Shown: positions 53,504 through 60,004 of the stretch, one piece after another | How the letters are laid out: each line of letters opens with the position of its first letter | Position numbering within the stretch: position 1 is the first letter of the stretch | IMG/VR virus record: IMGVR_UViG_2925639251_000002 | From: a virus | DNA length: 64,000 nucleotides | Reading direction: 5' to 3' (one strand) | Notes under the pieces: generated by a model | Seen by the model: only the letters and a program-made list of their open reading frames with translations | What the model was told of the DNA's origin: nothing | Database searches by the model: none | Translations under genes and position numbers: made by a program

Positions 53504-53741
53504 CTGACTGCTTTCAGATTGAGAAAGAATGCGTATAGCATTAATCCTCCAGCTAATGGAATATTTGAATTAGGTCATAACCCTCGTCTTCCAACGGTTT
53601 TAATTAACCCATCTCACCTACATCAGTAACTCACGTAGGAACGTAAGCCTTCGGATTGACAGGGAAATCTGAAAAAAACAAAAGGCGTCATAATGACGTC
53701 TTCAGGAACTCCTTGTACAGCATGGCACATGAGTTAAATTA

Positions 53742-53936
53742 TTGGAACAACAGAGAACAGAGTATATTTTTGATTAAAATATCACTAATAAAGGTTTGCG
53801 TCCGTAAACTCGTAAATCTCGTAATTCGTAAGCTGTAAAACGTAATCCGTCTCCAACCTAGGAAATAAATGAGTTTTGGTATTACAGTTTAGATACGCTC
53901 TAAACTAAAGCGGCTTTCTACTTCTCTGTTGTCCAA
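53742..53936 (-). ncRNA. Candidate stem-closed RNA with six UUACR repeats
   Basis: 15 bp terminal inverted repeat with one bulge; repeats at 53803-53845. Confidence 0.55.
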
Positions 53937-54009
53937 GCTGGGTAGTTTTACACCCAGCTATCAAGATAAAAGTGATTTTACCCTCATAGCTAAGTTAAAA
54001 CCTTAGCTT

Positions 54010-54525
54010 TTATAAATACTTATCTGCAGCTTCAAACTCAATTTCATAATTATGATTAGCTTTTTCAATAGAGTTTGAAAGACGATTAGCCATTCTTTCT
54101 AACTTTAATCCTTTAGCTTGCATTTTATCAGGATCAAACAAGGCTTCACGATAACTAATAACATCAGAATAAGAATTTACTCGTTCAGTTTTCTGAGAAC
54201 GACCGTAGCTTTTGAGTTTATTCGCTTCGCCTCTAAGTTGCTGTGCTAATTCAAGCGCTTCTGTGATCGATAATTCCTTTTCATCCCACAAAACTTTTGC
54301 ATCCAGGTTGGCTTTAGCTATTAGTACTACCAATTCACGATAATCTTTTTTAGTCGATTCTAGCTCAGCTGTGATTTGGTCTACAGTTTTTGTTGGTTTT
54401 GTATATTTTTCATCCTTATCATGCTCAACATATGCAACACTATCTCGTTCCTGTAAAAGTTCCTGAATACGTTTTGAGATTGCATTTCTTAAAGGTAAAG
54501 CTTCAAATAAAGCGATTTTTGACAT
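54010..54525 (-). CDS. DIP1984/septicolysin-like (DUF6847) coiled-coil protein
   Basis: LFEALPLRNAISKRIQEL...SITEAL...LSNSIEKANHNYEI pattern; AAGGAG RBS. Confidence 0.7.
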   Translation of the reverse strand: MSKIALFEALPLRNAISKRIQELLQERDSVAYVEHDKDEKYTKPTKTVDQITAELESTKKDYRELVVLIAKANLDAKVLWDEKELSITEALELAQQLRGEANKLKSYGRSQKTERVNSYSDVISYREALFDPDKMQAKGLKLERMANRLSNSIEKANHNYEIEFEAADKYL

Positions 54526-55501
54526 TTATTATCTTCTCCTTTAGACATACATCTTTTATATTCTAATAGATTCTTAAATAAATTGCCAATAAAACAAATT
54601 TTATACTTAGTTTTAATCAAAACATTTGAAAAGGTAAGACCCATATAACCCTTTTCAGAGACATTCCTATCTTTTCTTGTCAGGTCACACACCTTATCTA
54701 CATACAATGCGTGTAGATCGCAAGTCTCTTATTTTGCACAGTTTTCTCTGACTCGTGTAAGGAGGTATGTGCATGGGAAAGGTAAGTTTCTTGAAGGAAA
54801 AGTAGCGAATAAATAGCGAATATGTTACTAAGTGAAAATGAAAAGGCAAGACCGAAAATAATCCTTTTCTGTGAAATGGGAGCGGTGAGCAAGCGCCCAA
54901 AAACCATTTCACTTATTTTACGAGGGTATGTAATTACAAAGCCTCGCTAACCCGGAAAAATTTTTATGTGGCCGCATAATAAGCATCAAAGCTTACAAGG
55001 GCATTATTTAAAGGGAAGGGAGACGCATCTACCTTACCTAAGTGCAAGCCGAAGCAATACACCGCAATTAATATTCAGGCTATATGCCACCCATAATAAG
55101 ACCCTGATGGGATTCAGTCGCAATTTGCAATAATGCGTTAAGTCTTATCGGCATATTTAGCCCGATAATAGCCATTTACCTGTCTCTTTTAGATACAGAC
55201 ATTCGAGTTAACCTGAACCCTCATAAATGACCATTATCCGACTAACTACAATGACCAGTTGTAGCTGTAAAGTCGAATTTAATGCTTTTGTTCGTATGAA
55301 AGAGAGAATAGACATGTTTAGAAAAAGCTTCATCCACGATGGGGCAATACCCCGCTAATATCCACTTATCCGAAATCCTGGCATTCCACGTCCTCAAACA
55401 AATGAATATTAGCGGAGAACTGATATCCCACATATCAGTAAACAGCTTATTATTGACGACACCCCCATGCCATCAATAAAAGAACTCTAATTAACCAGGA
55501 G

Positions 55502-56189: not shown

Positions 56190-56840
56190 CTATTTTTCTT
56201 CTTTCCTCCATTTATCCCTTTTCCACTTGTTTTTTTGCTTTTGTGCTATTTTCTTTGCACAGGTTGGACAATATTTCGCCTTGTTCGATGCTGATTTGAA
56301 CATCTTACCGCAACTACAGCATCCTCTATAAGTCTTTAAGTTATGTCTTAGATTCTCTAATAGAGTCTGGCCAAAGCACTCCCATAATGTTGATTTAAAT
56401 TTGCTTTTCTTTTTATATAAATGCTTAACCAAAACATCAGAAACATATTGCTCGTCGTTGTGAACCTTCATCAATCTGTCTTTTATAACCTTATAAACAT
56501 AAAGTTTTTGTCCAGGCTTAATGTCTTCATCATTCATCAGCCATTTCTTGTTCTGGTCTAAACGTTTGTATTCACTAATAATTGCATCGTCCACTTTAAT
56601 CTCTTTGTTCTTAAGCAGGAAACGATAATCGAACTTTCCTGCAACAGCTGCGAAATTAATTCGGTCATTAGGAATAATTGAGTCTAACTTATTTACTGTG
56701 CTTTCATTAATTAACTCAACGCTATGTTCTTCTTTATCCTTTGCATTGATGAAGAAGTGGGGCACTTTATTTTTTATGTAATCTTTGATTTTCTCATCAA
56801 CGTGATCAGGGCGGGTGGGCATGAATAAGGTTTTTGCGAA
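56190..56840 (-). CDS. yonO: YonO RNA polymerase, exon 2
   Basis: In-frame continuation [11 protein letters not shown]...; C-terminal Zn finger. Confidence 0.85.
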
Positions 56841-58129
56841 CTTTGATACCCTCGGTTTCCCGATATTTATTAGGGAATAGACCATATCATCATCTGTACT
56901 AGACAGATGGTCAGCGCTTCATAATAAGGAATTTCACCTTATTATTACTCCATAAAGGATGGTCGTTGCACCTTCATTTACAAGTACTTCTCAGCATGAT
57001 GTAAACGCTTGGCACAGGGTTTTCATATAATACATTCTACATTCATTTCACATTTTTATAGGTTCTTCCTTGTTTAATTCCATAAACAACATTGGGTTTT
57101 ATGTTACACATTTTTGCAACATGGGGTGCTGATAACCCTTTTTTAAGAAGTTCTCTTATACATAATACTTCTTCTGGAGTAAGAGTGCTTTTCTTCTTGC
57201 TTTTGTATTTAAGAATAAAGTCGTCCCACCCAGTAACATGAATATGATTCCATACTTTACACTGTAATATTGATTTAACGATGGGGTAGGAAACACGCAT
57301 TGATTTTGATACTTCAGACATCTTTTCCCCATTAATCAATCGAACTTTTATCTCGTGTGCTTTCGTTTCATTTATTTTTGAGGATTTATTTTTTGACCCT
57401 AAATGAGACTGACGCATCTTTAATCTAGATTCTGGCGAATGCCTTTTATTCATTCTAGATTGTAAAAGCTTTTCTTTATGCTGCGGAGAGAGCTTTCTGC
57501 CAATTCTCGCCTTACTCATTTTGGCTTTAGTCTCATCACTAAGCTTTCTTCCGATGTTATTAATCCTATTCTTTTCCCCAATAATCTTTTTGGTGGAGTC
57601 AGACATCTTACAATTACTCTTGCCCTCTCCGCCGGTGGTCATGTTAAAGCCATTTAAATAGGCACCTAGTTCATTTATGTAGTGAGTTTCTAATTCGTTC
57701 ATATCTGAGTTTGGATCAACTGTTTGTAAAACATGGAATTGGAAATCGTTTTCTCCATATTTATTCCAATTATTCTGCAAATGTCGATTACAGTGCGAAT
57801 TGTTTTTCAGCTTCCAAGTGTGATGCCAGTAACGCTTAATAAATTTCATCTTAGTTTTCCCCACATATATTAAGCCGGTGCTTATCTGCTCAATCTTATA
57901 TATCCCACTCAAATATTTATGCTCATCCTCATTTATAAACTTCACTTTGTCACCCCCTTGTTTTAAATATCATTGTTCAAAATGTAAAATGTATTAATTA
58001 GAATTCCCCTGTTAGCACACTCATTGACGATCATTTCCTATCGCTACTTTTCGCTGAATGCACACCCTAGTTTTCTAGGTTCACTGACTTTTCATCCGCA
58101 TATCGCTATGCGACGCGACTATAAATTTA
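56841..58129 (-). ncRNA. Group I intron (IA-like) in yonO
   Basis: U.G pair at the 5' splice site; P3, P4, P7, P8 pairings; terminal G. Confidence 0.88.
57043..57945 (-). CDS. Intron-encoded GIY-YIG homing endonuclease with NUMOD3 repeats
   Basis: SGIYKI...YVGKT; LSDETKAKMS and HSPESRLKM repeats. Confidence 0.9.
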   Translation of the reverse strand: MKFINEDEHKYLSGIYKIEQISTGLIYVGKTKMKFIKRYWHHTWKLKNNSHCNRHLQNNWNKYGENDFQFHVLQTVDPNSDMNELETHYINELGAYLNGFNMTTGGEGKSNCKMSDSTKKIIGEKNRINNIGRKLSDETKAKMSKARIGRKLSPQHKEKLLQSRMNKRHSPESRLKMRQSHLGSKNKSSKINETKAHEIKVRLINGEKMSEVSKSMRVSYPIVKSILQCKVWNHIHVTGWDDFILKYKSKKKSTLTPEEVLCIRELLKKGLSAPHVAKMCNIKPNVVYGIKQGRTYKNVK

Positions 58130-60004
58130 ATCGATAGTAAAGTTATTTTCCATACATAGCCATTTGATCACGTCCAGATTTATATTGTCACTGTTCCATA
58201 TCTTAGTGATATTGTTACTGTACTCCCCGATATTGATCCCATAAGCAAGAGTTAGTGCTTCATAGATGTTTCTGCTATTAATCTCTTGTTTCTGGGCTAC
58301 AGACATTTCATAATACAAAGGAACGATGTTCTCCATATTACGCTTGGCAATATTGACGATTAGCTCATCAGAAATAATTAAGGCCTTATCCCCGTCATTA
58401 TCAAACTGCAGCAGTTTCGATATCGGATCATGAATGCTGGTATAAACACCTCGGGTAATAAACCACTTTTCATATTCCTCATCTTTTTTGTTCCATCTAA
58501 CTCCATGTTCTCTGTATAGGTGAGGGGAGCGAAGGATATCAATATGCCCTTCATCATATAAAGAACAATAGACATTGCTGCCGGTAAGAAGTCCTTTTGG
58601 ATTCTCAATTCCAAGAAACAGTCTTTCACAAAAAGCATATAGATCTGGACATAAATATGTATACCTAGCATCACTGACAAGTAATTTTCCTGATTTGGCG
58701 TCCTTAATCATACTCTTCTTCTTATTCTTAATGATTTCTTTGGTGTGATCATCATTTAGCAGCTCTGGATATGATAGTAGAGCTTCTTGAAGGCTTGTTT
58801 TATGTTTATTTTTCTCGGTAGCCCCCAAAACTTTCATCATGGTTTCTTTATCAGTGCCTAATTGAGTAATCTCTCTGACAGTTTTTGAGCTGATTTGGTT
58901 CAATTCCTCATCTGTGATATCAGTGAGTGTTTGTAGCATTTGGTAAGTCAGTTTTCCCTCAACCGATGGATCTTCTTCATTTAACTTAGCCCCAAGACAT
59001 CCATACTTTTTAAATTTGTTGCGATAGTCATCCCATGAATCATAGTACTTCCACATCTTAAACTGGCTTTTCGTAAAAATTATTTGGATATCATCTTTAA
59101 TAATGTCCCATTCTTTACCGTAGACGTCCTTAACTATAAATGAACTGTGTTTTTCAGCAAACTTTCTAAAATCAAATGGAACTAGCAGACCCTTAACCCA
59201 AGGTAATCTGACCATAAAGCTTTTCTGGCTCAAACTGGGAAGCATCATTCCGCAACCATCTGTATGTTCTATAGGAATATCCATAACTTTACGAGTGATT
59301 TCATATGTATCACGGTCAATATAATCAACCAGGCTGGAAACGTTTGTTTCTAAGTCATTTACGACAATTGTTTTATCAATATCAATTTCCCATGGACTGC
59401 TGGCGCTATTCGATAAGGCCATGTAGCTATTCCATTTGTTTATGCTACTCCCACCTTGAGCATTGATTTGCTCCACACTAAGGCCACAAGTTAAAGCATT
59501 TTGATACTTATCTAAGGTGCTTTGCTTGATAAAACAAGACTTTTTGGTTCGTATTTGACCGGCACTGCTAGTGAAATAAACGTATTTCTCATTGTTATGT
59601 ATGAATCCTTTATCAATAATGTCCCTTAAAATTTGAAAGTGATAAGTTTGGACAACCATGATCTCTTCAGAGAGAGAGTTTTCTTTGATTCCCAATGTTC
59701 GAGTTAAGACTGAATCAAATAATGAAATAACATTATTATCTTTCAGGGAATCTGTTCTAAGTGTTCTTATTTGATTATGATTGTTAAAGGCGTTATAAAG
59801 ATTTTCTTTTAAGGAAATAATCCTTTGCGTTATGTACTTCTTATGTTTTTTATCAACATGTTCAAGTTTTTTGAGATGATCTCTGTACCTATATGATTTT
59901 AAAATCTTGTTATGTAATTTGTTTTCTTGATCATTATAAAAAGCAGAAGTATCAATACTGTAAATATGTACTTGCTTATTTAGACCGTCTTTTTTTCCTT
60001 TCAA
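58130..60004 (-). CDS. yonO: YonO single-subunit RNA polymerase, exon 1
   Basis: RSP and DNDGD catalytic motif; exons total 841 aa. Confidence 0.9.

Follow-up and report, generated by a model that had tools for sequence, protein, structure and literature searches.

In a 64-kb stretch of DNA belonging to an SPbeta-like Bacillus prophage (hereafter the window, meaning the whole stretch analysed), we identified a cassette of ~870 bp in the late-leader region that couples a gene for a 171-aa helical protein of the DIP1984 fold to a structured RNA carrying seven short, regularly spaced repeats. We consider it reasonably probable that this RNA is cut from the 3′ end of the message and bound by approximately seven protein copies or sites, forming a predicted ring-like particle.

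The cassette lies in a gene-poor stretch between the genes for HU (yonN-like, 55937-55662) and YonK (53249-53040), with the terminase beyond and with BsrG and SR6 RNAs as further prophage markers in the window. In SPbeta, according to the available part of PMC5467207, the YonO-dependent late transcript begins in this HU-yonK stretch, before an unannotated non-coding RNA. All parts of the cassette are on the minus strand: a sigma-A-like promoter candidate (TTGGCA-18-TAGAAT, 54560-54589, 10 of 12 consensus matches), a ribosome-binding site read from the sequence (54536-54542), the gene itself (54010-54525; open reading frame, profiles and structure model), the RNA, and an intrinsic-terminator-like hairpin with a U tail (53679-53703), found likewise in SPbeta-like relatives. 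Because promoter-like sites are no commoner in the real sequence than in shuffled ones, we treat the promoter as putative; phages Bobb and Bp8p-C have TTGACA...TATAGT at the equivalent position. Phage SPbetaL7 aligns with the window to 54627 and resumes at 53733, with ~260 unrelated bases in place of the cassette, and in B. licheniformis-group prophages similarity within the HU-yonK stretch is confined to 54543 to ~53690. Together, these limits indicate that promoter, gene, RNA and terminator travel as one ~870-bp unit.

Other elements occupy the surroundings. A small conserved hairpin between the closing stem of the RNA and the terminator (53709-53733, minus strand) occurs twice in SPbetaL7, which is without the cassette, and probably belongs to the phage leader array. 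Outside the element, 75 nt downstream, lies a DUF3800-VIII RNA (Rfam RF03075, 58.9 bits; 53603-53668, minus strand); no DUF3800 gene was found among 12 nearby proteins scanned. Upstream of the cassette, a non-coding module (54632-54767, minus strand) shares 76–81% identity with lytic Herelleviridae (SIOphi, 015DV002 and others), in which its counterparts sit ahead of the portal gene. Farther upstream, a GIY-YIG/NUMOD3 endonuclease gene (57945-57043) separates ORFs of 625 and 231 aa (56190-60004, minus strand) that are likely pieces of a single gene, the one for the YonO RNA polymerase. The endonuclease gene may lie in an intron, but no intron match came from Rfam.

Folding of the region behind the gene (53700-54030) is unusually stable (z −5.5, with 0 of 100 shuffles equally stable). 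The initial annotation had placed here, on the minus strand, two hairpins behind the stop codon (54008-53988 and 53959-53936), a closing stem of 15 bp interrupted by a single bulge (53936-53922 paired to 53757-53742) and two small hairpins within it. All were recovered, precisely at the positions given, and the inner hairpins lie at 53906-53886 and 53782-53764. What the initial annotation had missed is a third, middle hairpin (53987-53960) between the first two, and the resulting set of three is an alternative fold of one long irregular hairpin, termed P0 (53935-54009), which begins right after the stop codon and is a predicted processing signal. The two forms are nearly isoenergetic in the window (−29.7 kcal/mol for the three hairpins versus −30.7 kcal/mol for the long hairpin, 54009-53935). 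Across 23 sequences of type A, the RNA architecture that includes the window, the alternative comprises up to three short hairpins; the long hairpin has the lower energy in 22 of these sequences, the two forms differ by no more than 1 kcal/mol in 6, and the alignment backs the long hairpin, not the three short ones, with 12 of 16 P0 pairs showing changes on both sides.

The closing stem, P1 (5′ arm, 53917-53936; 3′ arm, 53742-53762), was placed by folding and covariation. Testing it as an unanchored duplex, with shuffled partners for comparison, gave no useful signal (18 of 69 loci), and we therefore relied on covariation: 8 of 9 scored pairs change on both sides. Within it, the conserved hairpin P2 (53886-53906) covaries at 6 of 7 pairs, and its loop of five bases sits on a G-C pair that never varies (23 of 23 sequences), while a small variable hairpin, P3 (53764-53782), comes from folding and is unconserved in sequence in the alignment. 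Overall, 26 of 32 pairs change on both sides in type A (23 sequences, 8 of them close SPbeta-like kin); the corresponding figure is 15 of 21 in a second architecture, type B (20 sequences). Close kinship among many of the sequences inflates such counts. Both alignments were built by MAFFT without structure input, and the type A pair set is the RNAalifold consensus minus one isolated pair plus three added by hand. Cells at paired positions are able to pair in 93% (type A) and 96% (type B) of cases, compared to 42–59% with partners slid.

Types A and B were defined from the RNA itself, and both accompany the 171-aa protein clade. In type B, the 5′ element is an 11-bp stem behind the stop codon whose top, the nine bases GUGAGACUC, is invariant in 20 of 20 sequences, a loop that we take to resemble the T-loop of tRNA. 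A T-loop reading of P2 in clade A was rejected, as the two bases that close the P2 loop covary in Watson-Crick fashion and enclose five bases. Several other candidates were likewise set aside: a pseudoknot between a linker CCG and a repeat CGG (by inspection; L047-type loci are without the CCG), a peptide (short ORFs over the RNA are annotated in Bobb and Bp8p-C and absent from the phiAGATE and SDFMU_Pbc annotation, and the 7-nt period is out of frame) and a template for reverse transcription (none of 78 neighbouring proteins is a reverse transcriptase). Rfam 15 gave no match over the window element at E <= 5, no Rfam family reached its gathering score over the element at 20 homologous loci, and none was returned at E <= 0.5 in 12 canonical DIP1984 loci.

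Since the element combines hairpins with short direct repeats and is carried by mobile DNA, it could also act as DNA, either through iteron-like binding sites or as a single-stranded recombination site. We give this reading almost no weight: G-U pairs are conserved at two stem positions in type A (20 of 23 and 19 of 23), a period of 7 nt does not keep phase with the DNA helix, and the element keeps a fixed orientation behind a stop codon, has a terminator and is covered by RNA-seq. Furthermore, no recombinase or replication gene recurs among 78 flanking proteins.

Enclosed by the closing stem is the repeat tract (53799-53852), the predicted protein-binding site, which was delimited by repeat scoring and alignments. 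Six UUACR pentamers at 7–9 nt had been described here, and these are indeed present, spaced by 7, 7, 7, 9 and 8 nt; three spaced UUACR words match four times in 64 kb, all within the tract, where 0.01 matches are expected. The count itself required revision, as homologues show seven units with a U-N-A-C core and the leading GACGG is unit 1 of the seven (unit C positions 53849, 53842, 53835, 53828, 53821, 53812 and 53804). Among 90 units per type, U is found in 80 (type A) and 90 (type B), A in 88 and 82, and C in 88 and 85, with N free and the following base clade-specific (G in type A; C, U or A in type B); because these letters were counted on units chosen by a score that rewards them, the alignments serve as the independent view. 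Tracts span 43–47 nt, with a unit spacing of 7–9 nt and a minimal period of 7 nt. Since a strict AC-chain count misses degenerate units and best-k selection over-extends, the count of seven rests on the alignments and on the gain in chain score per added unit, which has medians of 2.3–3.9 for units 5–7 and of 0.3 for unit 8 in both clades. Agatevirus copies have just five clean units, two loci (L083 and L084) have degenerate tracts, and canonical DIP1984 loci show a weaker AC periodicity (median gain 0.8–0.9 for units 6–9) with no clear count. The consensus folds of types A and B leave the tract unpaired. As the window tract folded alone partly self-pairs (mean unpaired probability 0.35; clade A range 0.33–0.51), we term it single-stranded on the basis of the absence of conserved pairs in the alignments.

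We gathered 17 homologous IMG/VR prophage loci, four Agatevirus genomes and 31 chromosomal loci from genome samples plus L113, together with a further 10 metagenome, 7 genome and three plasmid loci. The resulting 69 intact loci (59 distinct) comprise prophages, lytic Agatevirus and chromosomes; held outside this count are L080 and L081 (contig ends), L114-L117 (broken gene), L146-L148 (plasmid) and L092-L110 (pattern hits). A conserved element downstream of the gene's homologues, as anticipated in the initial annotation, was confirmed by this comparison: 67 of the 69 intact loci beat the highest shuffled seven-unit score, compared to 0 of 67 upstream controls. The two misses, L083 and L084, still have their stems, and the RNA model recognises L084 at E 2e-10; the three plasmid loci also show the RNA behind the gene. 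At all loci with enough sequence, the stop codon is followed by a 5′ hairpin, a long closing stem, the repeat tract and, mostly, a terminator. In addition, the model finds the RNA directly 3′ of the gene in L113, L146, L147 and L148 (E 3e-8 to 1e-17), all of which were located by protein alone and none of which was used to build it. No third conserved gene emerged from 78 flanking proteins of 39 loci, where recurrence was seen just among near kin or generic families.

The type A model gave two matches in 150 genomes, both of them training loci behind the gene, and a pattern scan of IMG/VR that took no account of the gene returned 19 matches, of which 14 lie behind the gene and five (three distinct) are without the architecture. 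These results bear on the idea that the RNA, as a decoy or sponge, occupies some host factor, such as a repeat-binding protein or a MazF-like sequence-specific RNase, and that the gene is not its partner. Short repeated words are typical of decoys, and phage tRNAs and further structured RNA modules surround the element; nevertheless, 0 RNAs without the gene in 150 genomes and the distribution of the pattern matches speak against it, and the free base between U and AC is unlike the site that a UAC-type RNase requires. We therefore judge a decoy very unlikely. As a separate observation, L095 and L109 are unrelated viral contigs with a long nested inverted repeat (around 1200) flanked by four spaced ACG units.

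The gene had been assigned to DIP1984/DUF6847, a call that stands for the fold and falls short of the curated families. The predicted structure of the 171-aa protein (pLDDT 92.5) matches 3KDQ from Corynebacterium diphtheriae (Foldseek E 1.4e-5; VIA Z 12.9 and rmsd 4.3 at 22% identity, with 152 of 152 residues aligned), which is the sole full-length structure match, the next VIA rows covering <75% of its 152 aligned residues. By sequence, the protein scores 35.3 bits against NF038048 (E 1e-8; curated cut-off 70) and 26.4 bits against PF20935 (DUF6847; E 7e-6; cut-off 27), below the cut-off in both cases, and it matches phrog_25222 at E 3e-50. Thus, it shares with the DIP1984 family (NF038048, PF20935 DUF6847, 3KDQ) a whole-chain fold and, with canonical members, a structured RNA behind the gene, whereas its length (171 versus ~152 aa), its sub-threshold scores, its separate long branch and the architecture of its RNA set it apart. 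The two halves of the protein are homologous (HHalign probability 96%), the gene is under purifying selection (dN/dS 0.04–0.09 in 6 of 6 pairs), and basic residues are conserved across clades A and B at positions 13, 18, 19, 27, 98, 105 and 144. A profile search returned 229 cluster representatives at E <= 0.001, and six viral models match at this same threshold, including Vibrio, Erwinia, Aeromonas and Cronobacter phage proteins; giant viruses give weaker matches. Weak matches to 6un9 (PDB sequence), Cmr1 (PADLOC) and a tail fibre (PHROG) were set aside as coiled-coil noise. In a quick protein tree, types A, B and the canonical type each occupy one side of a branch (support 94, 94 and 100), an agreement that indicates co-inheritance only and is no proof of co-evolution, because kin share labels.

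Expression was assessed in eight RNA-seq runs, all of which are contigs that cannot show level, strand or ends and that show presence, not absence; we consequently use them as hints only. In run X3, depth is 11,667 on a 60-nt contig that lies within the RNA, 1,183 on a contig with the remainder of the RNA plus DNA downstream of it, and 40 on the gene contig; by arithmetic, an abundant species in this run could reach <= ~16 words into the gene-side contig and not beyond ~53965. Run X1 has a depth of 78 on the RNA versus 6–7 on the gene, and runs X9, X10 (probably DNA) and X13 have contigs over the RNA only (53608-53982, 53751-53947 and 53766-53920, respectively). Run X8 has gene and RNA at similar depth, run X2 has a depth of 22 on the 3′ half of the RNA and of 321 on the gene contig, and run X4 consists of one flat contig. 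Collectively, these runs are a weak and uneven indication of an RNA that is both separate and abundant. In the contigs of the eight runs, which show presence rather than absence, no head-to-tail (circular) join of the RNA 3′ to 5′ end was found.

The element could alternatively act in cis, with the protein binding its own message and shifting the balance between the long hairpin and the three hairpins of P0, so as to set processing or stability. Consistent with such feedback, the element is always a 3′ UTR on the same strand that begins at the stop codon, the two near-isoenergetic P0 folds are conserved, and runs X8 and X2 are without RNA excess. An elaborate closed domain and the contig depths of X3 and X1, however, suit a separate stable RNA; pairing of the RNA with its own gene's ribosome-binding region was not beyond shuffles in 12 of 14 loci; and feedback gives the protein no other job. 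On this evidence, we regard the cis reading as improbable.

For the reading that we prefer, a particle built on a processed RNA, the following course is proposed. One transcript would run from the upstream promoter through the terminator, and the long P0 hairpin would be cleaved by a host nuclease that acts on double strands, for example RNase III; where a type B T-loop hairpin or an adjacent tRNA is present, cutting could instead fall to RNase P or Z, in line with the general cleavage specificities of these three enzymes. The invariant GUGAGACUC hairpin of clade B and the tRNA-Ser gene of L146, which begins a few bases past the closing stem, hint at such processing. Following P0 cleavage, the 3′ arm would refold as the 53959-53936 hairpin, capping a stable RNA of ~218 nt (53959-53742) in which P1 would present the seven-unit tract as a loop. 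Each protomer would take up one U-N-A-C unit, with ~seven protomers assembling as in TRAP.

TRAP (MtrB) places 11 subunits on 11 GAG/UAG repeats separated by 2–3 spacer bases, as given in the available part of PMC1635260. The resemblance lies in a fixed number of short repeats with variable spacers, the oligomer being a prediction here. In contrast to TRAP, the window tract has a period of 7 versus 5–6, its RNA is 3′ of its own gene inside a closed stem, there is no downstream operon to attenuate, and the ring is a predicted one; moreover, the window protein has no Pfam, NCBIfam, PDB-sequence or fold match to MtrB. Counting against the predicted particle are a neutral to acidic protein (net charge +1 to −8), the lack of a known RNA-binding fold (neither ToxN nor TRAP nor any other such fold is among the listed structure matches) and the five clean units of Agatevirus.

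A type III toxin-antitoxin-like module had also been proposed, and membership of these systems was not supported. Like ToxIN, CptIN and TenpIN, the cassette combines one protein gene and one repeat RNA in a single small mobile transcription unit. Type III systems have 34–36 nt pseudoknot repeats upstream of the toxin with a terminator between the two, and their toxins are endoribonucleases that cut their own repeats (PMC5086642, as available in part). The window RNA, in contrast, starts at the stop codon and is followed by the terminator, and its units are of 7–9 nt with no conserved pairing. Among the listed structure matches of the protein, 3KDQ alone is full-length and the ToxN/CptN endoribonuclease fold does not appear. 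Because order, terminator position and repeat length differ, the cassette is not a member of the type III systems.

The main rival to our reading likewise needs a protein-RNA particle and differs in the purpose of that particle: the protein would be a latent toxic or polymerising effector capped by abundant RNA, and loss of the RNA on phage infection would free it, in the manner of type III toxin-antitoxin or abortive infection. Such an arrangement would fit a two-part, mobile cassette that is patchy in distribution (~35 strong matches in 401 genomes of the order), an RNA that possibly exceeds its message by contig depth, and canonical relatives on 372 plasmid records (343 of them Acinetobacter; some label the gene septicolysin). 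It would also fit the four loci with a broken gene and an intact RNA (L114, L116, L117 and L148), compared to 0 of 69 intact genes clearly without RNA; this asymmetry is weak, because gene breakage is easier to spot than RNA decay, and L115 combines a truncated gene with no RNA within the 300 nt examined. Conversely, an RNA that lies downstream with no intervening terminator would not be favoured by transcription towards antitoxin excess, strictly lytic phages have the cassette behind a strong promoter-like site, and its neighbours are not defence genes (the best PADLOC match is at E 0.026). We accordingly view a capped toxin as unlikely.

As for the job of the particle that we prefer, Agatevirus and two Paenibacillus megaplasmids have the cassette among tRNA genes, between those for tRNA-Leu and tRNA-Ser in the megaplasmid loci L146 (3312-3399) and L147 (3783-3867); chromosomal copies lie among ordinary genes, not tRNA genes, and a scan of 10 loci found tRNAs at 2. 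Since it is in this company that lytic phages and megaplasmids have the cassette, we favour a translation-side job, and the particle might help the phage or mobile element through infection or stress by sustaining or protecting host translation, a suggestion drawn from gene neighbourhood that we rate as rather doubtful. More broadly, and tentatively, the cassette may represent a widespread two-gene RNP class in which the processed RNA is a counting scaffold, the number of 7-nt units determining how large a ring or short helix the DIP1984-fold protein forms; host-phage conflict would be its field of use in large phages, plasmids and bacteria, and related folds would reach jumbo phages and giant viruses. 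If so, a function class would become available for 3KDQ, a solved orphan fold released in 2009, and for a gene common on Acinetobacter plasmids, where 'septicolysin' is the name in some records. The fixed count of seven repeats yields a sharp stoichiometry prediction, and a particle made of one protein and one RNA, whose repeat words differ by clade, could constitute a novel kind of phage-host conflict module and a compact programmable RNA-binding scaffold.

The gene-RNA unit, of which the initial annotation knew no description, is undescribed within the sources searched: no description was found in the literature (mostly open papers, main texts rather than supplementary motif tables) or in bioRxiv main texts since 2023, no RNA partner for the DIP1984 family appears in the papers searched, and no paper there concerns DUF6847 or the family accessions. 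In the portions available, DIP1984 occurs as a passing annotation and 3KDQ as a chance HHpred row. The closest described company comprises the DUF3800-associated, skipping-rope and drum RNAs, which are structured, have 3′ terminators and are tied to one protein family (Weinberg et al. 2017, PMC5737381, as available in part); these motifs differ from the present element in their protein family, and Rfam gave no match to the present element in the window or in 32 homologous loci.

Canonical DIP1984 genes carry a conserved RNA of their own (200–260 nt, termed type C), which was recognised by inspection in 20 of 20 Bacillales loci. The type C loci comprise L055-L074, L118, L120-L133, L144 (1660-1900) and L145 (1657-1900); a T-loop-like hairpin and a G-rich 3′ tail are found in many of these RNAs, and the type also occurs at further Bacillota, Acinetobacter-plasmid and cyanobacterial-plasmid loci. 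Two genomes (L122/L141 and L123/L140) each contain two diverged canonical gene-RNA cassettes 2 kb apart.
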